Shown here: in pieces, positions 3,754-54,165 of the stretch
How positions within the stretch are numbered: position 1 is the stretch's first letter
How the letters are laid out: every line of letters begins with the position of its first letter
DNA from: Candidatus Enterousia sp.
Lineage (GTDB): Bacteria; Pseudomonadota; Alphaproteobacteria; Rs-D84
Length of the DNA: 64,000 bases
Direction: 5' to 3'
Assembly: GCA_045546075.1 (NCBI GenBank)
Contig: JAZQCF010000001.1
Span: 79,683-143,682, forward strand
Notes under the pieces: model-generated
What the model was told of the DNA's origin: nothing
Seen by the model: the letters and a program-made list of their open reading frames with translations, nothing else
The model's database searches: none
Made by a program: the position numbers and the translations under genes

Positions 3754-4326
3754 ATGAAATTCAAATTGCTGTATTTTGGTGAAATTTTAATTAACCCCAA
3801 AAAGCGGGCCCAGCATATATCCGATATACGTATGCAATTTCACCCACAATTAAAGAAATTGGTTGAACATCAACCATGGGACAAATTAACACAATATATG
3901 GCACCGAACCCGGCAAAAAGTCCGGTCATTACACGCCACGTTGGCGGCATAGATTGGAATCCAATCATTACACCAAAACTGAAACTGATTGCAGAATTAG
4001 ATATTCAAATGTTGCACCCAGAAATTATCGGTGTTCCGCGTTCCGACATTGACAACCGAATCAAGACATTATTTGACGGTCTGCGTTGTCCACAAAATGA
4101 ACACGAAATCGGTCAAAACGTTCCACGTGATATTGGCCCAATTTATACCCTGTTGGATGATGACCATTTGATTACCAAGATATCTGTTAACACCAGCCAT
4201 TTGCTGTCATCGCATATGTTTCATCCTGATTTGGTGACCACCAGTCCCGATTGTGTATTTATGATGATTGATGTAAACCTGCGTGTCGCCGAAGGTACGT
4301 TGGAAAACCTGCCGTTTATGGTATAG
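3754..4326 (+). CDS. Hypothetical protein with a RusA-like D-x-D-N-x-x-K ... DDD motif (190 aa)
   Basis: PRSDIDNRIKTLFDGL ... LLDDDHLI has the same spacing as E. coli RusA RRDLDNLQKAAFDAL ... LDDAQV (D70, D72, K76, D91), except for a ~16-aa insertion before the last acidic residue. This is a by-eye match only. The TAG stop abuts a repeat element. Confidence 0.4.
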   Translation: MKFKLLYFGEILINPKKRAQHISDIRMQFHPQLKKLVEHQPWDKLTQYMAPNPAKSPVITRHVGGIDWNPIITPKLKLIAELDIQMLHPEIIGVPRSDIDNRIKTLFDGLRCPQNEHEIGQNVPRDIGPIYTLLDDDHLITKISVNTSHLLSSHMFHPDLVTTSPDCVFMMIDVNLRVAEGTLENLPFMV

Positions 4327-4327
4327 A

Positions 4328-4396
4328 GTGGTTAGTGTAAGTGGATAGTGGTTAGTGATTGATGGCCTCTGGAATATTCCAGAAACTGCTAACCAC
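4328..4396 (+). repeat. GTGGTTAGTG-family palindromic element, short form (copy A-left)
   Basis: GTGGTTAGTG at 4328 and 4348, a perfect 16-bp palindrome TCTGGAATATTCCAGA at 4368-4383, and CTAACCAC at 4389-4396. It aligns with the copies at 4810-4892 and with the reverse complement of 20437-20516. Confidence 0.85.
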
Positions 4397-4402
4397 TCCC
4401 CA

Positions 4403-4570
4403 CTAAATATCACTCATCGCCTGCTGTGTTATTGCACAGATTAAACCGACAAACTCTTTTTGGGTCATTCTGTATCCGCGGTGTTTTTTATAAAAATCAA
4501 GAATAGCCGCAATTAATAATTCTTCATGTTCCGCTGCTGGTTTTACTTTCTTTGTTTTTGCATTGTTCAT
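4403..4570 (-). CDS. Small HTH-like protein (55 aa, below the ORF-track cutoff)
   Basis: Hand translation gives MNNAKTKKVKPAAEHEELLIAAILDFYKKHRGYRMTQKEFVGLICAITQQAMSDI*. SD AAGAGGA lies 7 nt upstream of the ATG at 4570. The C-terminus resembles XRE-type helix 2-3 (MTQKEF..L..ITQQAMS). The stop sits at the element edge. Confidence 0.4.
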   Translation of the reverse strand: MNNAKTKKVKPAAEHEELLIAAILDFYKKHRGYRMTQKEFVGLICAITQQAMSDI

Positions 4571-4587: not shown

Positions 4588-4703
4588 AAAAACAAAAACC
4601 GTTAGAAAAAATTCAAACGGTTGGATGTTCACAGCTATTGATATCGGTAAATAGTGGGTTTATTCATATATATCACCCCATCCAACCGATGGTTGGATTT
4701 TTT
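4588..4703. ncRNA. Conserved structured non-coding module, copy A (leader, attenuator or sRNA; strand unresolved)
   Basis: Hairpin 4597-4603/4616-4622. GGTTGGATG (4619-4627) is complementary to CATCCAACC (4679-4687). Conserved block GTTTATTCATATATAT at 4658-4673. Hairpin ATCCAACC-GAT-GGTTGGAT followed by TTTTT at 4680-4703. The same element order occurs at 53427-53550. Confidence 0.35.
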
Positions 4704-4809
4704 ACATCATCGCTGATGCCAATATCATACATGGGCTGTGACACCCACCGATAGAATCCCTATCAACAATTGAAACATACAATAAATTCAATCGAAAATC
4801 AATTAGAAA

Positions 4810-4892
4810 GTGGTTAGTGGATAGTGGTTAGTGACTGGTGGTTTCTGGAATAATTTCATAATTACAAACTAATTCCAGAAACTACTAACCAC
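4810..4892 (+). repeat. GTGGTTAGTG-family palindromic element, long form (copy A-right)
   Basis: GTGGTTAGTG at 4810 and 4824, inverted repeat TTTCTGGAAT (4842-4851) / ATTCCAGAAA (4872-4881), and CTAACCAC at 4885-4892. It contains the TAG stop of the pilR-like gene. Confidence 0.85.
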
Positions 4893-5962
4893 TAACTTAA
4901 AAACGCCGTTATCTGGTCTTGCATTTGGAATGTGCCAAGGACAATCCACGCAATCACCGCGGATATAAGTAATATTCCAACCGTATTCAATGTTTCCGCA
5001 ACCGATTCAATTTTCTTGACCGAATTTTCCAAATAGTCATTTGAAATCTGGGTCAGGTTTTCATCAAAATCGTTCATATCGGCATAAATTGTCAAATCAC
5101 CAATCAATTCCTGATTTGGAAAATCCATACCTGTATTTTGCAACGCATTCCCAAGGTTATCACCATTTGCAATATAATGCAGCGTTTCATCTAAAATCCT
5201 GCGCAGATATCGGTTGGAATTATCGGCCAACATACGCATTGCATCCGGAATCGTAACACCCGCCGCAACCATCGCAGAAAGCGACATCATCCAACCAACC
5301 GACAGACGAATTTTATAAATATTCCACGGGGGCAAACCATCAAATATTGCACGCAAACGACCCGAAAAACGTGGCAAAGACCACCAAACAAAAATACCAA
5401 ACACAACCAATACTATTGAAAACGCCTTCCAATATTTACCGGCAATATTTGACAACCATATCAATGATGCCGCCCCACCCGACCAAACCATATCTTCGCC
5501 GGCAACCGCGGAAAGTGGTGGCACCAAATATAAACCGACCATAATTATAATCGCAAAAACCAAAACCAATAACAACGTTGGATATGCTATTGCACTGAAT
5601 ACCGCACTACCTATTCTTTTATTTGCAACAATAATGCGACCGACATTTTCCAATGCGACAATTAAACTGGACATATTTCCAGATGTTAACAGTAATGTTT
5701 CTTCGGCGGGAACCCAACCACGTGTGGCCTCAGAAAAACTCATTCCGCGTTCCAGGTTTTTTTCCCATTCGCGCATACATATTGCAAACGGTTCATTTGG
5801 TTTTGCGCCACCACGTGATTCAATCATTTGCAATCTGTTCAACGCATTTACCAATGTAAAATCATTTTTCAACAACGATACCAATTTACGCCATATAGAA
5901 ATACGTTTATCATTACTGAAACGACAAACCATTTTGGCATAAAATATTTCCAACCTGTTCAT
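4892..5962 (-). CDS. Type IV pilus/T2SS platform protein (GspF/PilC family; R64 PilR / BfpE position)
   Basis: Polytopic membrane protein of ~356 aa with GspF-like organisation, immediately downstream of the secretion ATPase. I placed the start at MNRLEIF (5962), which has a GGGGG SD, rather than at 6013. Confidence 0.75.
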   Translation of the reverse strand: MNRLEIFYAKMVCRFSNDKRISIWRKLVSLLKNDFTLVNALNRLQMIESRGGAKPNEPFAICMREWEKNLERGMSFSEATRGWVPAEETLLLTSGNMSSLIVALENVGRIIVANKRIGSAVFSAIAYPTLLLVLVFAIIIMVGLYLVPPLSAVAGEDMVWSGGAASLIWLSNIAGKYWKAFSIVLVVFGIFVWWSLPRFSGRLRAIFDGLPPWNIYKIRLSVGWMMSLSAMVAAGVTIPDAMRMLADNSNRYLRRILDETLHYIANGDNLGNALQNTGMDFPNQELIGDLTIYADMNDFDENLTQISNDYLENSVKKIESVAETLNTVGILLISAVIAWIVLGTFQMQDQITAFLS

Positions 5963-12935: not shown

Positions 12936-13012
<77 letters not shown>

Positions 13013-13057: not shown

Positions 13058-13529
13058 GTGTGTTGTGTTGGATTTGAACCACCGAATAAAGGTGGTTCAG
13101 TGCAAGGATTAGGCGATTGGAAAGCGCCGGTTTGCGCGTCGCGCAAAAATCCGCAGCCAATGAAGCAAAGCGAAATAAATCCATCCCCCGCAACCAGTTT
13201 TAATAAAAAATGTGCCCCTGTGGCGCATTTTTTATTTAAAGTGTGTTGTGTTGGGTTTGAACCACCGAGGCAAGGTGGTTCACCACAAGCGAAAGCCGGA
13301 CGGAAGTACGGCGGTCAACCAATGGTTGATGAGCGCAGTTGGCGCGAAAATTTTATTTTCGCGAAATCCATCCAACCTAAATTTCGAATAACTACAAATT
13401 TGCGCGCAGCCGGCACATAATGTACCGCGCGAGCGACAACAAGTAGATTTTGGGAAGCGCAGCGCAGCAAAATCGCTATGGTTGCCCAGCAGACACCAAT
13501 GGTGTCGATGGAAATCCATCCCCCCGCCA
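13058..13529 (+). repeat. Tandem copies of the tRNA-fMet 3' end with associated hairpins (att-like scars)
   Basis: AAATCCATCCCCCGCAACCA (12993-13012) recurs perfectly at 13177-13196, in degenerate form at 13364-13377, and near-perfectly at 13512-13529. Homologous units GTGTGTTGTGTTGG(A/G)TTTGAACCACC-N7-GGTGGTTCA lie at 13058-13099 and 13241-13281. A second terminator lies at 13210-13233. Confidence 0.8.
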
Positions 13530-13622: not shown

Positions 13623-14798
13623 ATGCAGGCAATTAAACGGATAATTTTTACCGTATTTTTACTTATTGTGGTACTTTTCCGCGCCCCGGCCTATGCAGAA
13701 GATGAAAATAATTTCGAAGCAAAATTTACATTTACCGTGAATGTGACAAGTACACGAAATAATACAACCTTATTCAAATTGGCATCAACTGGAACTTTCT
13801 ATATTGATTACGGTGATGGTTCAACCGGAACAATAAACTCAACATCAACAAATCAACAAACAATTTCACATCGTTATACAACAACCGGAACCAAAACAAT
13901 CAAACTTGGTGGACTTGCCACAGGTTATTCAACCGGCAGTGAAGAATCAGATTCATCTATACTTTTCGCAGATAATACTTATATAACCGGAATTTCCGGG
14001 TCATTGGGTCAAATATTCCCGACACTTGAAAACGGTTCACAACCATTGTTCAAGGCAACATTTGCCGAATGCACAAACCTGGCAGGGTCAATTCCAGCTG
14101 AATTGTTTGACGGTATAACCGGTCAACCACGCGCAGAAATGTTCCGCTCTTTGTTTTGGAACGACAAAAAATTAACCGGTTCTATTCCAGGTGAATTATT
14201 TTCCGGATTATCCGGCACCCCAACAAGTAATTTATTTTATGGTGTATTTTATTATTGCAGCGGTCTTACTGGTTCTATTCCCGGTGAATTGTTTGCTGGT
14301 ATTGTCGGAAACCAACAGGAACGATTATTCCAAAATACATTCAATTACTGTTCTAAACTTTCCGGTTTTATTCCACCAGAATTATTTGCCGGTATAAATA
14401 AAACCCCGGCTGTTACAGGGACAAACGGCGCATTTACAAATGTTTTTGCAAATACAACCAACATGTCTACAACATGCCCGACAAATTACAAAAAATACAC
14501 AACCGGTTTTGAAAATTATTTTAACAGTCGTGTTTCGTGCGAGCCAGATGTTTCGTGTTCAACGGGTTATGCGGCATATGGTGCAAGTTGTTATAAAACT
14601 TGTTCATTTGGTAAAAAATTTATGGTTTCAACCGGACTTAGTTTCGATGTATTTGGTGAACCCGAACCATCGGGAAATCCATCTATGCATATAAAACTGG
14701 GCGACACAGAATGTTATGTATTTTCAAAACCCGGCAGTGGCAGTTTCAATTTCAAATACACCGATGGAAAAACATATCATTTGGTTGGCGCAAATTAA
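13623..14798 (+). CDS. Secreted BspA-like leucine-rich-repeat protein with a Cys-rich C-terminus
   Basis: Signal peptide ending APAYA/ED. There are 4-5 repeats of ~29-30 aa of the form F..F..C..L(T/A/S)GSIP.ELF.G..G. The repeats are also similar at the DNA level (for example 14173-14215 versus 14263-14305). Confidence 0.6.
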   Translation: MQAIKRIIFTVFLLIVVLFRAPAYAEDENNFEAKFTFTVNVTSTRNNTTLFKLASTGTFYIDYGDGSTGTINSTSTNQQTISHRYTTTGTKTIKLGGLATGYSTGSEESDSSILFADNTYITGISGSLGQIFPTLENGSQPLFKATFAECTNLAGSIPAELFDGITGQPRAEMFRSLFWNDKKLTGSIPGELFSGLSGTPTSNLFYGVFYYCSGLTGSIPGELFAGIVGNQQERLFQNTFNYCSKLSGFIPPELFAGINKTPAVTGTNGAFTNVFANTTNMSTTCPTNYKKYTTGFENYFNSRVSCEPDVSCSTGYAAYGASCYKTCSFGKKFMVSTGLSFDVFGEPEPSGNPSMHIKLGDTECYVFSKPGSGSFNFKYTDGKTYHLVGAN

Positions 14799-19825: not shown

Positions 19826-20437
19826 ATGTTGAAAAAATTTCTAATTTTTGCAATTTGTTTTTCATCAATATCGTGTTTTGCGAACGATTGTATTAAATAT
19901 AAACAAACCCCGAAAGTTAATATTGCATCCCCGATATATCGAAAATCTGTTTCGCAATCAAATATTCAAATAAATAAAAATCATGGAAATGTAATTGCGA
20001 CATTGGTTGAAGATTATGATATTGCCGTTGATATATTTTCGGCCCCGGGTGGTTATTGTGTTGTATTAAAATCTGTTGATGCGTTAATTGGGTACGATGA
20101 TTTTTCTGTTAAAATTGATTATTCACATAAATATGGTTCGTGTTCATATAACGCGATTTTGAATCACGAAGATAAACACATCGATGCATATTTATCTGTT
20201 ATAAATGATTTAGAATTTGATATAGAAAGTTCGGTATTTAACGCGGCGGATTCAATGATGCCGATATTTGTATCATCGCGCGATGATATAGAATCCGCCA
20301 TAGAAGAAATAAACTATGAAATGCGTGGTCATCCAGAATTAATTTTGATAAAACAAAAAATCAATGCGGCAATGGAAATTCGCAATAAACGCATAGACCA
20401 AAATGAAGATAATCACGAATTAAAATCGTGCTTTTAG
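19826..20437 (+). CDS. Secreted protein with an HExxH motif (203 aa; possible Zn-metallopeptidase-like protein)
   Basis: Signal-like N-terminus MLKKFLIFAICFSSISCFA and LNHEDKHIDAY (HEDKH = HExxH). It starts 2 nt after the virB4 stop. Any family assignment (DUF922-like?) is not verifiable here. Confidence 0.35.
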   Translation: MLKKFLIFAICFSSISCFANDCIKYKQTPKVNIASPIYRKSVSQSNIQINKNHGNVIATLVEDYDIAVDIFSAPGGYCVVLKSVDALIGYDDFSVKIDYSHKYGSCSYNAILNHEDKHIDAYLSVINDLEFDIESSVFNAADSMMPIFVSSRDDIESAIEEINYEMRGHPELILIKQKINAAMEIRNKRIDQNEDNHELKSCF

Positions 20438-20516
20438 TGGTTAGTAGTTTCTGGAATTAATTCACGATTATGAAATTATTCTAGATACCACAAGTCACTA
20501 ACCACTTACACTAACA
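20437..20516 (-). repeat. GTGGTTAGTG-family palindromic element, solo copy C (inverted relative to the A copies)
   Basis: The reverse complement aligns with 4810-4892 at roughly 85 percent identity by eye. It spans from the TAG stop of ORF 19826-20437 into the last codons and stop of dnaG. Confidence 0.85.
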
Positions 20517-22119
20517 ATTCAAACTTTTCACGCATACGGGAAATTTCTTCGTCTATACGGCGGATTTCGGCACTTACATCACTTTCACCGGAAAGTCCGC
20601 GTATGGTTAAATCACGTTTTTGTTTTTCCAAACTTTCAATATATTTTTGTATTTTTAATGACACAATATATTTTTCCGCAGATTTCAAATCAAAATCAAA
20701 ATCCGGCCGCATATTAGAATCCAGGTCCAAGTTAAATTTACTGATAAAATCACCATAGCGTTCTGCGATCTCGGGGAATTTGTTTACAATATAAATAAGA
20801 GTGTTCTTCATAATGTTATCTATTTCCGGGACATCAATGTTTGACACTTCTTTTTGATTACTATAATTTCTCCATTCTTGGTATTTACGATTTTTGTAAT
20901 CACGTTCATATTCATATTTTAATAAATTATCTTGTATTTTATCTGTATGTTGTTTCAAGAATTTTTCTGCCTGAACCCGACCGGATGGGGTTTTTATTAA
21001 AAAATTCTTATTCGCAATATTCCACAGAAAATCAACCAAAGGTGTCGCAGAATCTATAATTTTTTTCATTTCATCTGCCCCGCCCTTTTTTAATACTTCA
21101 TCTGGGTCTTTGCCACCGGTTACAAACGCAAAACTAACGTTCGAATTATCACGCAAGAACGGTAATATAATACCGCACGCCCGCGCAGCGGCCTTTTGCC
21201 CTGCCGTATCCCCATCAAAACAGAAAATAATATTTCTGTTCGCCTTGCATAATATTGCGATATGGTCTTCGGTCAATGCGGTTCCCAACGGTGCAACCGT
21301 TTCGCCAAAACCATTACATTGCATTTGAATCGCATCGATTTGACCTTCTACAATAATTGCGCGGTTTGCCCGGTGAATTGATTCGCGTGCAAAGTTAAAC
21401 CCGAACAGTGTTTGTCGTTTATGAAACATTTCTGTATCGGTTGTGTTTATATACTTTGGTTCAGACCCGTCCAAAGAACGTCCCGAAAAAGCAACAATTT
21501 GGCCGTGCGCGTTAAAAATTGGAAACATTAATTTATCACGAAAGAAATCATACAAACCATAATCGCCGCGGCGAACAAGCCCTGTTGCAATTAATTTATC
21601 TTGTTTTGTATTTGCGAATTTGTTTGAAATAATATTGTTTTTTGGTGCATAACCGATGCCATATTTTTTTATCATTTCATCACTGAAACCACGCCGGCGT
21701 ATGTATTCCAATGCATACGCGCCATCGGGTGAAAATAATTTTTCGGCATAAATTTTTGCCGCCGCCGATGTGATTGTTATATATGTTTCTTCGGCTTCGA
21801 TTTGTTGTTGTGTTTTTGGTTTGTATGTTGGCAACTTTAATCCCGCCATATCGGCCAATTCGGCAATAGCGGTTTTGAAATCAACGTGTTCAGTTTCCAT
21901 TGTAAAAGAAATAATGTCGCCATGTTTTCCGCAACCAAAACAATGAAAAAATCCTTTTTCTTCACTGACCGAAAAAGACGGTGTTTTTTCGTTATGAAAT
22001 GGGCAACATCCCCAATAATTTTGACCTTTTTTAACCAACGGAACACGGCGGGATACAACGTCCACAATGGATAATCGTTCACGTAATTGGTCGGTAAAAT
22101 TATTATCAAATTTTGCCAT
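20506..22119 (-). CDS. dnaG: DNA primase
   Basis: Zinc ribbon CCPFHNEKTPSFSV...CFGCG, Toprim IIVEGQIDA, 537 aa. Confidence 0.95.
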   Translation of the reverse strand: MAKFDNNFTDQLRERLSIVDVVSRRVPLVKKGQNYWGCCPFHNEKTPSFSVSEEKGFFHCFGCGKHGDIISFTMETEHVDFKTAIAELADMAGLKLPTYKPKTQQQIEAEETYITITSAAAKIYAEKLFSPDGAYALEYIRRRGFSDEMIKKYGIGYAPKNNIISNKFANTKQDKLIATGLVRRGDYGLYDFFRDKLMFPIFNAHGQIVAFSGRSLDGSEPKYINTTDTEMFHKRQTLFGFNFARESIHRANRAIIVEGQIDAIQMQCNGFGETVAPLGTALTEDHIAILCKANRNIIFCFDGDTAGQKAAARACGIILPFLRDNSNVSFAFVTGGKDPDEVLKKGGADEMKKIIDSATPLVDFLWNIANKNFLIKTPSGRVQAEKFLKQHTDKIQDNLLKYEYERDYKNRKYQEWRNYSNQKEVSNIDVPEIDNIMKNTLIYIVNKFPEIAERYGDFISKFNLDLDSNMRPDFDFDLKSAEKYIVSLKIQKYIESLEKQKRDLTIRGLSGESDVSAEIRRIDEEISRMREKFELLV

Positions 22120-39396: not shown

Positions 39397-39408
39397 GCCC
39401 GTTGCCTT

Positions 39409-39475
39409 GGGTGGTTAGTTCGGTTGGGAAGCCGCGTACGTTGACATCGTAAAGGTCGTTGGTTCCCGGCCCGAG
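39409..39475 (+). pseudogene. Degenerate partial copy of tRNA-Val
   Basis: It shares GGGTGGTTAG and a 29-nt block TACGTTGACATCGTAAAGGTCGTTGGTTC (39437-39465) with the adjacent tRNA-Val. The D-arm, the T-stem 3' half and the acceptor 3' strand do not pair. Confidence 0.55.
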
Positions 39476-39491
39476 AACACTTGAAGAATAT

Positions 39492-39568
39492 GGGTGGTTA
39501 GCTCAGTTGGTTAGAGCGTTACGTTGACATCGTAAAGGTCGTTGGTTCGAGTCCAATACCACCCACCA
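39492..39568 (+). tRNA. tRNA-Val (anticodon GAC), CCA encoded
   Basis: GGGTGGTTAGCTCAGTTGGTTAGAGC, anticodon loop TTGACAT, T-arm GTTGGTTCGAGTCCAAT, then ACCACCCACCA. Length 77 nt. Confidence 0.95.
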
Positions 39569-48061: not shown

Positions 48062-48736
48062 TTAAAAACCCTTTGGTGTTTCCATTTTTACCGTGGAAAC
48101 TTTCTTGTTCAATGAATTGATAACATCGTTTGTGATATCCAGGTTTTCAACATTTGCGCCCGTACGTGCGAAACGTCCATCCATTACCAAAGACAAATTC
48201 TTTTTTGTGATAATTGCTTCGATAATTGGGTCCAAGTGTTTTTCCTGAATCGTTGCCAATGCGCGTTGGAACGAAGATTCAATCGATTGTGCGCGTTCGG
48301 TCAAATCACGTTGCAGTTTTGTAACCTTGCCCTGGTATTCAACGACACGGCGTTGCAATGCTTCACGCGACAGAACATCTTGGGATTTTTCAATTTCGGC
48401 CTTTTCTTTTTCCAATGCCTTTTGCTGTTTGTCTAATTCACTGCGCAGTTTGTTTTCATAGTTTTCTTTTTGTTTGCGCAAATCTTGTAATGCGTTGGCA
48501 TCATTTTGAATTGCATCCATACGAACAACCGCGATACGTAAATCTGCACCATTTGCGGCATCGGTGGAAACTTCACTGATTGCGGCATCGGCGCTGACCG
48601 TTTTTTCGCTGCATCCGCGCAAAGCGAACACACCGACCAAGGCAACCGCAATCACGATTGCGGCGATGACACCGTATTTAACATAATTTTTTGTTGTGGA
48701 ATTGTTTGTTTTTTTTGTATCTGTCATATTTTCCAT
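48062..48736 (-). CDS. skp: OmpH/Skp-like periplasmic chaperone
   Basis: N-terminal hydrophobic anchor or signal, then a long K/E/Q-rich coiled coil (LRKQKENYENKLRSELDKQQKALEKEKAEIEK) and an Skp-like C-terminus. Confidence 0.65.
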   Translation of the reverse strand: MENMTDTKKTNNSTTKNYVKYGVIAAIVIAVALVGVFALRGCSEKTVSADAAISEVSTDAANGADLRIAVVRMDAIQNDANALQDLRKQKENYENKLRSELDKQQKALEKEKAEIEKSQDVLSREALQRRVVEYQGKVTKLQRDLTERAQSIESSFQRALATIQEKHLDPIIEAIITKKNLSLVMDGRFARTGANVENLDITNDVINSLNKKVSTVKMETPKGF

Positions 48737-48807
48737 CCTTTTGTTTTTGTTGACGTGGTCAGTATAGCAATAAAATTTATAAAATAAAAGAGAAAGTTAT
48801 CGGTTTT

Positions 48808-49482
48808 CTAACGCACCGGTGAAATGCGCAATTCAACACGCCGATTGGTCAGGCGACCCCATTCATCCTGGGCGGCAATGGGGCGCGCAGAACCGCGGCC
48901 AACAATAAACATACGCGTCGGTTTAATTCCTGCGCGTGCAAAATATACCGCCGTGCGTTCCGCCATATCGGTGGACAATGCCCGTGCCGCGTTTTGGTCC
49001 CGCATAGAATCTGTGTAACCTGAAACCTCGATAAACGTGGCATCGTATTTATTTAATATCCGTGCGATGGTTTTCAAATTTTCGTCACCGATGGGTGATA
49101 TTTCCGGCGCGTTTAATTCCATAATCGCATCACGCACCAAAATTACCACTACATCGGTTCCGGCACGTTGGACCGACATACCCGGGCGACGCAAAGCATC
49201 ATATAATTTATTTTCTAATTCCGCCATATATCCCAAATACATTGCCGATTCATTTAATGCTTTATCACCATATTCCATTTCGGGTTCTGGTATAATCGCA
49301 TCCATAACGGTGCGCCCCCCTGCCCCAAGGTAGATTGGTTTTTTCGCACTGCGCGAAACATCGTTCATATCGGCAAATGTTGCGCCATACAGGTAATTCT
49401 TCCACGTGGTGCGTTCCGGGCTTTGATATGGGCTGCACCCAACAAGAATCGCGACAAAAAATCCAATCAGTATTTTCTTCAT
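48808..49482 (-). CDS. OmpA-domain lipoprotein (peptidoglycan-binding)
   Basis: Lipobox ILVGC and a C-terminal OmpA-like domain GYTDS....N..LS..RA..V...L...G........GRG...P......W....NRRVEL. Confidence 0.8.
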   Translation of the reverse strand: MKKILIGFFVAILVGCSPYQSPERTTWKNYLYGATFADMNDVSRSAKKPIYLGAGGRTVMDAIIPEPEMEYGDKALNESAMYLGYMAELENKLYDALRRPGMSVQRAGTDVVVILVRDAIMELNAPEISPIGDENLKTIARILNKYDATFIEVSGYTDSMRDQNAARALSTDMAERTAVYFARAGIKPTRMFIVGRGSARPIAAQDEWGRLTNRRVELRISPVR

Positions 49483-49483
49483 A

Positions 49484-49939
49484 TTATCTTACTATGAAAG
49501 ATATATTATTATCGGCACCACCAAAGCACGCGGCCGAATTGTCCAATCGATAGCCGTTCACAAACATATCATACGCCCAATTCGGCAACGCCGTCGCAAA
49601 GAATTCGCATTCACCACGTGACAGCCCAACCAGGTCTATTGAAAAACTGGTAACATCGGTGCCAACATTTATTGACCAAGATTTTCCAACGGGTGCTTTG
49701 TCGGTTTTTAATGCACCGGCCTTGACCAAATAATCAACCGAAACACCGGTGTAATCACCCCGCATTTCCATAAGCAGTTTTGTATTCTTGGCAACCTCGC
49801 GCAATTCGGCGGATGCGATGGTGTTTTTTTGATTATGGCGAATTGAATTATAAATGCCAACGGCGGATGCCGTCATAACGGCGGTTATCGCCAACACGCC
49901 AATAATTTCAATCAATGAACGTCCTGATTCTGCTCTCAT
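49484..49939 (-). CDS. Type IV pilin / pseudopilin-like protein
   Basis: MRAESG|RSLIEIIGVLAITAVM: a short leader ending in Gly, Glu at +5, then a hydrophobic helix. A GGGGG SD precedes the ATG at 49939 (the ORF-track start is 49951). C-terminal Cys pair. Confidence 0.6.
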   Translation of the reverse strand: MRAESGRSLIEIIGVLAITAVMTASAVGIYNSIRHNQKNTIASAELREVAKNTKLLMEMRGDYTGVSVDYLVKAGALKTDKAPVGKSWSINVGTDVTSFSIDLVGLSRGECEFFATALPNWAYDMFVNGYRLDNSAACFGGADNNISFIVR

Positions 49940-49953
49940 ATTTACCCCCATTT

Positions 49954-51489
49954 TTATTGTTTTGAAATTCCTACAATTTCTGCGCCTTCGAACAAAGACA
50001 TCGCATCGGCAACCATTGGGTCGGCCACGGCATCATTTTGTATTTGTTCGCGCACAGTTGTATTTTGATGTGATTCTTCGATTTTATTCAGTTCCCATTT
50101 TGCGCCGGTTTTTGTATTCAGCCATACAATTAATTTCTTTTGGAAATCTGCATCATCGCCCCGGTCAAAATATGTTATTTTATTATCCGCCAGATTTGTA
50201 ACCTCAATATTCTTTGTAAAGTATGAATAAAGCATCATTTCACGGGCCGTCGATAACGCATCCGCCAAATCCGCCGCAGAATTTATTTTGATTGTTTTAA
50301 CCTCTGGTTTTGGGGTGGGTGCACTTTGTGTCGGTGTGGGCACATTACCATTTTGTTTCAAAATATCTGGGATCGATGGCATATCGGCGATATGCATCAA
50401 TCGAATTACCAACATATCAAAGCATTGTTTTTGATTACCCGCCGCCGCCATTTCAGGCACAGACGCAACCATAACCTGCCACAGACGGGACAGCGTATTC
50501 AAAGACACGTGTTTGTTAATTTCGTTTATACGTTCACGTTGGTCTGCGGTATATGGAATACTGTCACCGACACCGGCGCGTAAAACCGGATGCATACGCG
50601 TTGCCCAATGTGTCCATTCCATCATATCGGTAAGCAACATTGATAAATCTGCGCCATTGGTATAAATCTCGTCTGCGCGGGCCAATGCCGCCGAAACATT
50701 ACCCGACAAAATTGTCTGCATAAAATCGACAACCACACCGCGGTCGGCACGCTTTAACATATCCATAACGGCGGATTCATCAACGTGGCCGCCGGTTTGG
50801 GCAATCGCCTGGTCCAACAGGGACAATCCATCACGAACCGAACCATCCGCCGCCCGTGCCAACAATTCATTTGCCGCATCGGTTAATTCAATTTTTTCTT
50901 GTTCTGCAATCCACGCGAAATGTTTTTTCAATGTTTCAACCGGCACGCGCACCAAATCAAATCGTTGGCAACGCGACAGAATCGTAACCGGAACCTTGCG
51001 TATTTCGGTGGTTGCCAAAATGAATATCACGTGTGCGGGTGGTTCTTCCAATGTTTTCAACAGCGCGTTAAACGCACTGGACGACAGCATATGAACTTCG
51101 TCAATAATATATACCTTGTATCGACCATTTGTTGGACGATATTGGGCCGCATCCAGAATTTCGCGCATATTATCAACGCCGGTATGGGACGCAGCGTCGA
51201 TTTCCAATACGTCAATATGTTGGCCGGCCGCAATCGCACGGCAATTATCACATTTCCCGCACGGTGTGGCGGTTGGCCCATCGGCCGAAAGGCAATTTAA
51301 TGCCTTGGCCAAAATACGCGCCGTACTGGTCTTTCCGGTTCCGCGAATTCCGGTAAAAATATATGCGTGCGCGATGCGCCCAGTCTTGATTGCAGTGGTC
51401 AGGGTTTTAACCAAAACATCCTGGCCAATAAGTGATTGAAAATCCTGACTGCGATATTTGCGCGCCAAAACCGTGTAATTGGTATCCAT
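49954..51489 (-). CDS. dnaX: DNA polymerase III subunit gamma/tau
   Basis: [10 protein letters not shown], Walker [10 protein letters not shown], zinc module CGKCDNC, DEVHML. I placed the start at MDTNYTV. Confidence 0.93.
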
Positions 51490-51589
51490 ATTATCTTCCT
51501 TTGGAAAAAAGAATAGCAGACCAATATCAAAATTCAAGGCAAATATAATTTACACTTTTCTTTTATTTTTTTTCTATTATAATGCCGGT

Positions 51590-52651: not shown

Positions 52652-53092
52652 ATGGTTGATACCAAAGGTATAGAGGCGGTAATTCCGCATCGTGGCGATA
52701 TGCGCCTGGTTGATGAAATTCGCGAATTTACGGACAAAACCGCGGTGGGGATTAAACACATCACAAATAACGAATTCTGGTGCAAGGGTCATTTCCCGGC
52801 CAAGCCGATTATGCCGGGTGTCTTGATTGTCGAGGCATTGGCCCAAACCGCGTGTTTTACAATCCTGAACGCGATTGGTAATAATGGCGGGCGCGCATTG
52901 GGATACTTTGTGACGATTGAAAATGCCAAGTTCACACATATGGTTGTTCCGGGCGATACATTGGAATTACATATCGAAGAAATCGGTTCTAAAATGAAAC
53001 TGCATAAATTTAACGGCACGGCATTCGTAAATGGCAAACGTGTCGCGGTTGCAACATTTTCTGCAATGTTGGACAACGACCCGGTGATTTAG
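52652..53092 (+). CDS. fabZ: 3-hydroxyacyl-ACP dehydratase FabZ
   Basis: PHRGDMRLVD, HFPAKPIMPGV, 146 aa, directly after lpxD. Confidence 0.95.
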   Translation: MVDTKGIEAVIPHRGDMRLVDEIREFTDKTAVGIKHITNNEFWCKGHFPAKPIMPGVLIVEALAQTACFTILNAIGNNGGRALGYFVTIENAKFTHMVVPGDTLELHIEEIGSKMKLHKFNGTAFVNGKRVAVATFSAMLDNDPVI

Positions 53093-53149
53093 TGGTTAGT
53101 CCGTCACGACCGCGGCGCGGCGTGCCGCGACGGGTGTTAGTGGTTAGTG
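53092..53149 (+). repeat. GTGGTTAGTG-family motifs flanking a GC-rich hairpin (copy B-left)
   Basis: GTGGTTAGT at 53092 overlaps the fabZ TAG stop, and GTGGTTAGTG lies at 53140. GC-rich imperfect palindromic sequence sits between them. Confidence 0.7.
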
Positions 53150-53172
53150 CGGGCGCAATTGCGCCCGTTTTT
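53150..53172 (+). terminator. Intrinsic terminator after fabZ
   Basis: CGGGCGC-AATT-GCGCCCG followed by TTTTT. Confidence 0.75.
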
Positions 53173-53398
53173 ATTTGTGTTTTGGGGGCACGCGCCGGCA
53201 CCGCAACAGGCAAAACCCGTGATAAAATACAGATTGTAAAATATTGTCCGGAATTATCTCTTTACCCTGTTCATATTTATGTAATTGCCGTGCAGATATT
53301 GAAAACATCCTTGCAACGTCATCTGCGCCCAGGCAATTATGCCGCCGCGCATTACGCAACGCGCGCCCAAAATATTTTGAATCAACCAATGTAACCAT
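53171..53398 (-). CDS. XRE-family helix-turn-helix protein (75 aa)
   Basis: GRALRNARRHNCLGADDVARMFSISARQLHKYEQGKEIIP is a canonical XRE HTH. A GGAGG SD lies 6 nt upstream of the ATG. Confidence 0.65.
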   Translation of the reverse strand: MVTLVDSKYFGRALRNARRHNCLGADDVARMFSISARQLHKYEQGKEIIPDNILQSVFYHGFCLLRCRRVPPKHK

Positions 53399-53426
53399 TT
53401 TATACCTCCATTTTGGTTATAAAAAT

Positions 53427-53550
53427 ACCGTCAAGACATTTGACGGTTGGAGGTTAGAAACCTGTAAGATACAACAGTGTCGTTTATTCAATATATTCGC
53501 GACCCTCCAACCAAATGGAGTTTTCGTATCTTAAGAGGGTTTCTAATCCT
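53427..53550. ncRNA. Conserved structured non-coding module, copy B
   Basis: Hairpin 53427-53433/53441-53447. GGTTGGAGG (53445-53453) is complementary to CCTCCAACC (53504-53512). Conserved block GTTTATTCAATATATT at 53482-53497. Local hairpin followed by TTTTC at 53505-53525. A long imperfect stem pairs 53451-53472 with 53526-53550. Confidence 0.35.
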
Positions 53551-53587
53551 CGCACTGGTTGTCAACCAATGCAGAAATATTATAATT

Positions 53588-53615
53588 GAAAACGGTTGCG
53601 CTTGCAACCGTTTTC
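53588..53615. terminator. Strong bidirectional terminator hairpin
   Basis: GAAAACGGTTGC-GCTT-GCAACCGTTTTC, a 12-bp stem. Confidence 0.7.
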
Positions 53616-53616
53616 G

Positions 53617-53655
53617 CACTAACCACTAATCACTAACACTAACCACTAACACTCG
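53617..53655 (-). repeat. GTGGTTAGTG-family motifs, inverted orientation (copy B-right)
   Basis: CACTAACCAC at 53617 and 53637, with related CACTAAC units between them. It ends 4 nt before the stop of the VIT-family gene. Confidence 0.75.
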
Positions 53656-53658
53656 CCA

Positions 53659-54165
53659 CTATATCGCTATCCCGAAAAATATTTTTGCGCATTCGCCAAT
53701 CGCAAACGCAACAAACGTCACAATCGCACAGATTATCAACATCTCGATAAACGATGGCCAAAGGCGCACCCCCATTAACACAGAACGCAAATAATTAAAC
53801 ATAAATATTATTGACGCGCCGATAACAAAGGTCATTGTAATCGCAATAAAGGAATTTTCGATAAATATAAATGGCACCAATAACATAAGCGCACTGAACA
53901 TATAGGCAATGCCCGTCATTATGCCGCGCCATAATGCGACCCGCGTGTTACCGCCCGCCTTTTGCGACAGGTATTGCGATGCCGTCATTGACAATCCCGC
54001 CGATGCCGCGGCAATAAGACCCGTTAAAACGATTACATATTGTGTCGCATCGGCAAACACCAACCCGGTAATCAAACCCAGTGTTGATACCAATGCGTCG
54101 TGCATTCCCAAAACCAGTGAGGCCCAAACAGGTTCTTGTTCTTTCATTTTCGTCATACTTTTCAT
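53659..54165 (-). CDS. VIT1/CCC1-family membrane protein (iron/manganese transporter-like, no ferritin-like domain)
   Basis: LGMHDALVSTLGLITG motif and five TM helices. 168 aa. Confidence 0.65.
   Translation of the reverse strand: MKSMTKMKEQEPVWASLVLGMHDALVSTLGLITGLVFADATQYVIVLTGLIAAASAGLSMTASQYLSQKAGGNTRVALWRGIMTGIAYMFSALMLLVPFIFIENSFIAITMTFVIGASIIFMFNYLRSVLMGVRLWPSFIEMLIICAIVTFVAFAIGECAKIFFGIAI

Follow-up and report, generated by a model that had tools for sequence, protein, structure and literature searches.

In a 64-kb stretch of genomic DNA from Candidatus Enterousia sp. (hereafter, the window), the fabZ gene is followed, where lpxA would be expected, by a short cassette that carries a 75-aa helix-turn-helix (HTH) gene of the XRE type and is framed by inverted arrays of heptamers, with a VIT-family gene on its far side. 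The question raised by this locus is what the cassette (cassette B) is, how its gene is read and how it came to stand next to fabZ. Here it is proposed, at a probability of roughly 0.7 for the explanation as a whole, that cassette B is a self-contained transcription unit of ~470 bp with a promoter, a leader RNA and the 75-aa XRE-type gene; that the leader, whose family is absent from Rfam, is a two-state terminator/antiterminator attenuator in which region 2 pairs with the upstream region 1 or the downstream region 3; and that the insulated cassette is flipped and redistributed by recombination between its flanking arrays, which resemble repetitive extragenic palindromic (REP) sequences and are specific to one lineage.

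The Rs-D84 order consists of uncultured bacteria of animal guts with genomes mostly <1 Mb (PMC12306168). Sequences and loci recovered from relatives of the window genome are numbered L001 to L134, and genes reported as absent from the window were looked for among its scanned open reading frames (ORFs).

Anatomy of the cassette at fabZ

Every part of cassette B that the initial annotation had listed was found in its place. The features are given below with window coordinates and strand, including those of the second leader copy (cassette A).

52652-53092, fabZ ORF with a FabA domain; its stop codon TAG opens TAGTGGTTAGT
53090-53100, + strand, first heptamer unit TAGTGGTTAGT; the TAG inside it is the fabZ stop codon
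53101-53136, unstranded, GC-rich palindrome CCGTCACGACCGCGGCGCGGCGTGCCGCGACGGGTG, a separate small repeated element
53138-53149, + strand, left inverted repeat TAGTGGTTAGTG, left limit of the flippable segment
53150-53173, + strand, hairpin T2 CGGGCGCAATTGCGCCCG with a T-run, scored by the terminator scan as a + strand terminator
53171-53398, - strand, 75-aa XRE/Cro-C1 HTH gene (ORF, Pfam HTH_19)
53405-53409, - strand, Shine-Dalgarno sequence GGAGG, which can pair with CCUCC of region 3
53417-53447, - strand, putative terminator of the attenuator: hairpin ACCGUCAA/UUGACGGU and then a U-run, with the start of the 5' arm inside region 3
53445-53453, - strand, region 3, RNA CCUCCAACC, with the 5' GAGG (helix H1), region 2 (antiterminator) or the terminator as possible partners
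53454-53472, - strand, 3' strands of H2 and H3 in the long helix, supported by covariation
53479-53503, - strand, hairpin P2, with a variable, covarying stem and a conserved 15-nt loop GAAUAUAUUGAAUAA
53504-53512, - strand, region 2, RNA GGUUGGAGG, the putative switching strand, supported by covariation
53516-53520, - strand, region 1, RNA CUCCA, shortened in the B-type leader (family consensus CUCCAACC)
53526-53551, - strand, 5' strands of helices H1-H3, one side of the "extra long stem" of the initial annotation
53552-53572, - strand, 5' hairpin Pa, also a DNA palindrome GCAUUGGUUGACAACCAGUGC, with a sequence specific to leaders of this HTH family; candidate operator
53579-53607, - strand, predicted sigma-70-type promoter of the leader/HTH transcript (promoter scan): TTGCAA (53607-53602), 17-nt spacer, TATAAT (53584-53579)
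53559-53586, + strand, outward promoter-like site TTGTCA-16-TATAAT, which overlaps the leader promoter in a common palindromic ATTATAAT
53589-53614, unstranded, hairpin T1 AAAACGGTTGCGCTTGCAACCGTTTT, a putative outward-facing insulator/terminator that holds the -35 box of the leader promoter
53617-53661, - strand, right inverted array with CACTAAC units on the + strand, right limit of the segment, with its last CTA serving as stop codon of the VIT gene
4619-4747, - strand, second leader copy (cassette A); the 55-aa gene downstream of it (4403-4570, - strand) is unrelated
4326-4405, unstranded, palindromic element of heptamer arrays flanking cassette A; further elements lie at 4810-4896 and, solitary, at 20434-20520

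The hairpin described initially as a 12-bp bidirectional terminator (53588-53615) is present, with the correction that it contains the -35 box of the leader's own promoter. The long stem pairing 53451-53472 with 53526-53550 is also real, but it was wrongly taken for an extra of cassette B, being the family-wide helix H1-H3 that cassette A has as well. Beyond the HTH gene, non-coding sequence extends to ~53575. T2 is conserved at every locus, always at the cassette's 3' end, and is predicted to be an outward-facing terminator that halts transcription arriving from fabZ. The outward promoter-like site (53559-53586) points towards the VIT gene and matches 11 of the 12 consensus positions, and its -35 box is partly conserved in other cassette copies.

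A clade-wide leader RNA family

The leader is a clade-wide 5' regulatory RNA of ~175 nt that belongs to an uncatalogued family. The similarity between the leaders of cassettes A and B, noticed in the initial annotation, is real and reflects structure: their common core occurs exactly twice in the window, with 0 occurrences expected, and a covariance model (130 positions, 35 pairs) trained on 56 copies from other genomes matches both, with 76.5 bits for B (53445-53551) and 81.1 bits for A (4619-4747). Across ~985 kb of sampled DNA the model gave 115 + 31 = 146 full-length matches, one of them a weak antisense match of another, which leaves at least 145 copies, and in this sample the family is confined to Candidatus Enterousia and Rs-D84 Alphaproteobacteria. 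The leader-core pattern was found in more than 116 stretches of a genome collection, nearly all of them metagenome-assembled genomes (MAGs) named either Candidatus Enterousia or uncultured gut Alphaproteobacteria/Rickettsiales. In viral contigs of IMG/VR there were three true copies (L132:12104-12172, L133:8519-8587 and L134:852-920) and one chance match; the three adjoin a DNA methyltransferase-like gene and genes for secreted proteins, with no phage context of note, and the contigs may be Enterousia mobile elements or misclassified chromosomal fragments.

In Rfam, no family reached its threshold for either window copy, and sRNA-Xcc1 (RF02221), annotated as a trans-acting small RNA (sRNA), gave no match to them at E values up to 10, nor to L045 or in a 62-kb search. 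The sole match in the Enterousia group was the leader core of L024, with 32.5 bits, short of the 53 bits that Rfam sets as gathering score; in this search of 161 nt the E value was 2e-4. The alignment of this core is suggestive of a distant relationship between the leader and sRNA-Xcc1, which is not established.

The leader motif stands on the coding strand at every locus recovered, and in 88 of 112 copies it is followed by a start codon at a distance of 40-59 nt. The genes that follow are more than 100 in number, mutually unrelated and mostly without any repeat nearby. About half of them encode proteins of ≤125 aa, mostly XRE-type regulators of several subfamilies; the other half are larger, with a hydrophobic N-terminus in 41 of 51, and many of these larger proteins are Cys-rich or similar to outer-membrane proteins. 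The RNA and the repeats had been regarded together as the conserved core of the unit, a view that is not upheld, since the leader precedes this large set of genes mostly without repeats and the heptamer arrays are limited to a sub-lineage (23 of the 128 sequences examined), where they also occur on their own. Two or three leader copies are found within a few hundred bases in some genomes (L080:2806-3115, L116:2362-2998 and L083:755-1147), which suggests tandem leader-gene units.

Upstream of other leader copies, a -10-like box is present in 33 of the 41 with enough sequence. The 5' hairpin Pa is formed in ~75% of the copies vs 13% of shuffles, and the motif GCAYYGG...CCRRTG is found in 27 of 56 leaders of small genes vs one of 56 leaders of large genes. 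The Pa palindrome, just downstream of the -10 box, may double as an operator for the HTH protein, which could thus regulate its own gene.

Leader fold and competing pairings

Single-sequence folds of diverse leader copies agree with each other. The common fold has the 5' hairpin Pa, then a long closing helix in three parts (H1-H3), and a terminator hairpin downstream. Inside the closing helix there is a three-way junction of hairpin Pc, the hairpin of region 1 (CUCCAACC) with region 2 (GGUUGGAGG), and P2 with its 15-nt loop GAAUAUAUUGAAUAA; Pc is absent from B-type leaders. In the alignment, 95.7% of the cells are paired and 28 of the 35 pairs have compensatory changes. The covariation score is 0.528 vs ~0.06 for controls with slid partners, and none of 500 shuffles scored as high; because the alignment was fitted to the model, the comparison with the slid controls is the fairer one, and there the margin is large.

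The same alignment indicates which strand is the RNA. G-U wobbles are frequent (G-U at pair 2/234 in 86 sequences, U-G at pair 109/136 in 23). On the opposite strand they would not pair, so the leader RNA is assigned to the strand of the gene. Two candidates on the + strand were set aside, as the RNA is on the other strand: small leader ORFs (short ATG-initiated peptides after CCAACC, in both A and B) and an antisense small RNA from a + strand promoter. It is highly improbable that the conserved stems act as DNA, in a cruciform or as a site of single-strand recombination or replication. Inverted repeats are symmetric on both strands and the element is associated with a movable cassette, as this explanation would have it, but the G-U pairs are strand-specific, only one weak antisense match was obtained among 146, the position relative to promoter, terminator and start codon is fixed, and most copies stand at ordinary genes without repeats.

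A hairpin with a U-run is present in 126 of 132 leader copies, with its 5' arm starting in the AACC of region 3; in window B it was placed by the scan at 53447-53427, followed by a T-run. It lies between the leader and the ribosome-binding site, and an alternative pairing that is conserved and mutually exclusive overlaps it. This alternative is the helix of regions 2 and 3, which is not part of the covariance model: 99.5% of its cells are paired, five of nine pairs have compensatory changes, and none of 500 shuffles was as high. Variant leaders change in a coordinated manner, with five copies carrying GGUUGGAGU with ACUCCAACC, and regions 1, 2 and 3 changed together in L028 and L037 (GGCAGGAGG / CCUCCUGCC / CUUCUGCC). 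Window A, with GGUUGGAUG / CAUCCAACC / AUCCAACC as its regions 1, 2 and 3, is the third case of this triple covariation. Covariation shows the family-wide structure and both pairings.

The predicted energies are -60.1 kcal/mol for the terminator state of B vs -52.1 kcal/mol with the pairing of regions 2 and 3 forced, and -65.4 vs -47.3 kcal/mol for A. Since the terminator state is the predicted minimum-energy state, termination would be the default and a factor would be needed for read-through. The proposed sequence of events is that the TTGCAA-17-TATAAT promoter drives the ~175-nt leader and then the 75-aa XRE-type gene. By default, region 2 would pair with region 1 while the long helix closes the multi-branched fold, and the terminator hairpin would form by borrowing the AACC of region 3, ending transcription just before the Shine-Dalgarno sequence. 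If region 2 were freed to pair with region 3, the terminator would be weakened and the gene read. A common trigger, be it a protein, an RNA or a small ligand, is probably bound by the invariant strands together with the conserved loop of 15 nt; a multi-branched fold with an invariant loop is compatible with a riboswitch aptamer.

It is distinctly improbable that the leader is mainly an independent gene for a trans-acting small RNA, as sRNA-Xcc1 is annotated, with its position upstream of genes being incidental. The default fold ends in a terminator, so that a stable RNA of ~150 nt would be expected, and sRNA-Xcc1 was detected as an 88-nt RNA (PMC2996969). However, the leader keeps to the same strand and to the fixed 40-59 nt spacing described above, the only consensus promoter is upstream of the leader, the alternative pairing overlaps the terminator, and the Shine-Dalgarno sequence has a possible partner in the CCUCC of region 3. 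Trans and cis roles are, moreover, not mutually exclusive.

Inversion, copies and exchange of the cassette

As described initially, the cassette is a discrete unit bounded by inverted heptamer arrays. At the allelic site of L002 the flanks are 99.2% and 98.3% identical to the window and the segment between GTGGTTAGTG and CACTAACCAC is reverse-complemented, with perfect 12-bp inverted repeats marking the exact breakpoints of the inversion. The cassette is convergent with fabZ in the window, L010 and L028 and co-directional with it in L002, L001, L003 and L006, and, with FabZ identities of 100, 97.9, 96.6 and 90.4%, at least two changes of orientation have occurred at fabZ. Both orientations are found at the 3' end of rluD too (L011 vs L007 and L128). 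All orientation variants come from separate assemblies, i.e., they are differences between strains.

The cassette stands between fabZ and the VIT gene in the window, L002, L001, L003, L006 and L028, and beside fabZ with a different neighbour in L010. It was also found at five or more sites beyond fabZ, which include parC and rpmG (L005), rpmA (L004), rluD (L007, L011 and L128), efp and fba (L008), and others (L009 and L129); the copies of L005 and L006 belong to one MAG. A protein-guided scan for further cassette alleles gave three loci. The layout is constant, with heptamers, T1, promoter, leader, HTH gene, T2 and heptamers, and the similarity between copies stops at the heptamers. The inner segment of the window is 94% identical to that of L002 (96% in the leader and 92% in the HTH gene), and the leaders of the window and L006 are 98.6% identical though their fabZ genes share only 90.5%, which argues that copies have also been exchanged or replaced and not merely flipped.

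From these comparisons, the cassette is movable and flippable, most likely by recombination between the arrays. The arrays are reverse complements of each other, and homologous recombination, or gene conversion from another array-flanked copy, would flip, replace or transplant the cassette. Such a mechanism is the best fit to the occurrence of both orientations at one site and of copies at several sites. The outward-facing terminators at both ends would insulate the neighbours in either orientation, which points to a neutral polymorphism rather than a regulatory switch. The cassette is also dispensable, since the alleles of L001 (1380-1726) and L003 (470-626) are decayed: a deletion between CGAAAAC direct repeats has taken out T1 and the promoter along with the leader's 5' half, and in L001 the HTH gene is frameshifted as well. 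A third cassette type, at L073:2291-2774 upstream of lpxD, has the same leader with an unrelated protein of 73-86 aa without a family match, and is bounded by GGTTAGTG and CACTAACC.

The perfect 12-bp inverted repeats at the exact breakpoints, the presence of both orientations at two loci (between strains) and the outward promoter-like TTGTCA-16-TATAAT near one end, with 11 of 12 consensus positions, would also be expected of an inverton, in which a site-specific invertase acts on GTGGTTAGTG / CACTAACCAC and orientation controls the neighbouring gene. Such a system is nevertheless quite unlikely here. No invertase is among the ORFs scanned in the 64-kb window, the neighbours are insulated by the terminators in either orientation, and the outward promoter reads antisense into a convergent gene whichever way the segment lies; in addition, the inner sequence is more diverged than the flanks, and the arrays, which differ in copy number, are also found around palindromes without gene content.

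Several points weigh against the proposal of an attenuated cassette moved by recombination between arrays. The transcription start, the termination and the read-through are all predicted, and the nature of the switch trigger is a matter of inference. Region 1 of the B-type leader is shortened to CUCCA, so that its hairpin with region 2 is weak there, and regions 1-3 are nearly invariant, the support for the alternative helix coming from 11 variant cells only. As to movement, an inner segment (94%) more diverged than its flanks (98-99%) between the window and L002 means that a simple flip in place is not the whole story, the two orientations come from different assemblies and in no case from a single population, and no recombinase or transposase gene is among the ORFs scanned in the window.

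Heptamer arrays and the GC palindrome

The GTTAGTG arrays are lineage-specific, REP-like intergenic repeats, being short, over-represented, palindrome-forming and present at many loci. With up to one mismatch, GTGGTTAGTG has 20 copies in the window vs 2.2 expected, a number not reached in any of 100 shuffles, and these copies cluster at five places, four of which frame cassettes A and B. The arrays occur in a sub-lineage only, and outside it the leader-HTH units have no flanking inverted repeats of ≥12 nt. Tandem GTTAGTG puts TAG in all three frames of one strand and TAA in those of the other, so that each of the six frames has a stop. The first repeat unit contains or adjoins the end of almost all flanking genes: fabZ, the VIT gene, a 190-aa gene, pilC, a 203-aa gene, dnaG, parC, rluD and the gene of cassette A.

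The arrays also frame short hairpins, as in the solitary element at 20434-20520, and the 36-nt GC palindrome. This palindrome is found in identical form after TAGTGGTTAGT at unrelated loci (L005:7697, L028:4744, L115:1621 and L130:860) and is absent from the allelic site of L002, which makes it a presence/absence polymorphism. The 11-bp TAGTGGTTAGT stands on both of its sides, a duplication that flanks the GC palindrome only.

This duplication and the absence of the palindrome from the L002 allele, together with multiple copies that have identical boundaries at five or more other sites and with the small palindromic modules that have the same ends, would suit a non-autonomous transposon similar to a miniature inverted-repeat transposable element (MITE) or to a paired-REP element (REPIN), with heptamers as terminal inverted repeats and a transposase or REP-associated tyrosine transposase (RAYT) encoded elsewhere in the genome. 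For the HTH cassette this is unlikely, as no consistent target-site duplication surrounds it, the arrays are tandem and variable in length rather than defined ends, no transposase was seen in the window, and the genomes are <1 Mb and reduced (PMC12306168). Integron attC sites, ends of the IS200/IS605 type, retrons and CRISPR were rejected as candidates, the required enzyme genes and site architecture being absent.

The fabZ neighbourhood and lpxA

Neither lpxA nor lpxB is present among the window ORFs scanned, in agreement with the initial annotation, and lpxA does not follow fabZ at any fabZ locus recovered. The 3' neighbour of fabZ is the VIT gene in L002, L001, L003, L006 and L028, a different gene in L010 and a third one in L073; where the neighbour is a 139-aa ORF, it comes after a stretch of degenerate repeats. 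The order fabZ-cassette-VIT is found in relatives down to 90% FabZ identity (L006 and L028). The cassette had been taken to mark a synteny breakpoint where lpxA is expected. It does lie in a variable, repeat-filled junction at the fabZ 3' flank, but it is not a recent insertion that displaced lpxA, because the order is shared to 90% FabZ identity and no fabZ locus was recovered with lpxA adjacent. The fabZ junction had no match in a JGI metagenome scan.

On the other side of lpxD, the window has a skp-ompA-155aa-dnaX block on the minus strand (48062-51537), divergent from lpxD. In L006, dnaX, ompA, skp, lpxD and fabZ follow each other in this order on one strand, and therefore a block of ~3.5 kb is inverted in the window genome; no GTGGTTAGTG is present at its borders.

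Encoded proteins and other features of the window

The 75-aa protein matches Pfam HTH_19 (PF12844) with 30.9 bits, against a cut-off of 30.2 bits, and an E value of 2.5e-7. Its predicted structure (predicted local distance difference test score, pLDDT, of 76.6) shows an XRE domain of the usual four helices, to which a disordered basic tail is attached, and the nearest solved structures are ClgR, C.AhdI (a controller of restriction-modification), HipB and HigA2. In a large protein collection it has only nine clusters of homologues, and a relationship to the Xer-activating HTH proteins (VC1465 family) was rejected, with an E value of 0.02 far below the cut-off. The cassette A protein has 55 aa and an ending ...MSDI that is conserved in L105 and L115. 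The two proteins have no detectable homology (hhalign probability 0.04), in line with the initial annotation, in which they were not obviously homologous. Exact-protein look-ups for the window HTH and VIT proteins gave no match, and a literature search by sequence string found nothing relevant.

The window otherwise contains housekeeping genes, including gyrB, lpxC, lpxK, dnaG, topA, mrdA, rodA, dnaX and those for aminoacyl-tRNA synthetases, with scattered type IV secretion and pilus genes. A partial copy of tRNA-Val, 84% identical, is located just upstream of the real gene (39408-39465 and 39491-39568), and a second copy of the tRNA-Met 3' end stands 184 nt downstream of the gene (12936-13012 and 13177-13232); these partial copies may be scars of integrated elements. 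A 391-aa ORF without a Pfam match (13623-14798) has four tandem 93-nt (31-aa) repeats at 14082-14392.

Possible significance and comparison with known systems

Rs-D84 bacteria such as Candidatus Enterousia are widespread in the gut, and their gene regulation is almost unexplored. One strongly covarying leader before a large share of the genes for secreted proteins and small regulators points to one master signal for the surface repertoire. A further and more tentative reading, possible rather than probable, is that the leader is a new riboswitch-like class of attenuator, with a complex two-state fold and perhaps a distant kinship to sRNA-Xcc1, through which one signal would coordinate dozens of genes for secreted or surface proteins and small XRE regulators per genome in gut symbionts of reduced genome size, with the arrays serving as portable homology arms by which leader-gene cassettes are flipped and transplanted without a dedicated recombinase. 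Under it, the "sRNAs" of the sRNA-Xcc1 type carried by phages, integrons and genomic islands would likewise attenuate mobile genes in cis, and the possible link would re-interpret a family now annotated as trans-acting sRNAs. For RNA biologists the leader is a well-defined orphan switch candidate, with >140 sequences, a structure and two states. Where a genome has few enzymes of mobile elements, simple heptamer arrays may provide the handles by which recombination inverts small genes and redistributes them.

Invertible promoter segments are known from the fim switch, Hin and the invertons of Bacteroides. The cassette resembles them as a segment between short inverted repeats that is seen both ways; however, it has no nearby invertase, it is a complete insulated gene and not a promoter driving its neighbour, and its variation is between strains and not within one population.

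REP sequences and their mosaics (BIMEs), REPINs, and MITEs such as Correia elements are short, abundant intergenic palindromic repeats that lie right after stop codons and can mediate rearrangements, and the short tandemly repeated repetitive (STRR) sequences of cyanobacteria are tandem heptamers. The window arrays are likewise short, abundant and palindrome-forming, lie after stop codons and, as in STRR sequences, consist of tandem heptamers. They differ in that tandem GTTAGTG units in inverted arrays frame variable cargo (hairpins, the GC palindrome or a whole gene cassette), in that they supply the stop codons of neighbouring genes, and in that no RAYT or transposase was found among the window ORFs scanned.

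Integron cassettes are similar as small, promoter-bearing cassettes with unrelated ORFs between related repeat sites, and GTTAGTG matches the GTTRRRY core in five of seven positions. The locus nevertheless lacks the attC architecture (RYYYAAC...GTTRRRY in a single imperfect hairpin), its heptamers being tandem and of opposite polarity, and there is no IntI in the window, no attI and no cassette array.

The features shared with sRNA-Xcc1 in the L024 alignment are a 9-bp G-rich closing helix (GGnnGGnGG / CCnCCnnCC) around two hairpins, a joiner UUGA, and ACC following the helix. In the leader family, the 99.5%-paired helix of regions 2 and 3 and the covarying P2 agree with this layout. Like the leader of cassette B, sRNA-Xcc1 immediately precedes small genes of mobile DNA, such as symE in an integron cassette of Xanthomonas (bioRxiv 10.1101/2025.06.18.660453) and an ORF6N gene in an APSE phage (bioRxiv 10.1101/2020.03.17.996009), and a Xylella island has five copies of it ~385 bp apart (PMC12189769). 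The Enterousia leader, however, is twice as long, adding a 5' domain with the competing region 1 and a separate 3' terminator, and the way it is placed before start codons speaks for a role in cis, whereas sRNA-Xcc1 has been described as a trans-acting sRNA.

Closest in logic are the leaders of the trp type, the T-box and many riboswitches, in which a strand has two possible partners and one outcome permits an intrinsic terminator just upstream of the ribosome-binding site. The Enterousia leader likewise has a strand with two partners and a terminator before the ribosome-binding site. It differs from these systems in having no leader peptide, tRNA-binding features or known aptamer, and in the genes that it serves, which encode surface proteins and XRE regulators instead of a metabolic pathway.

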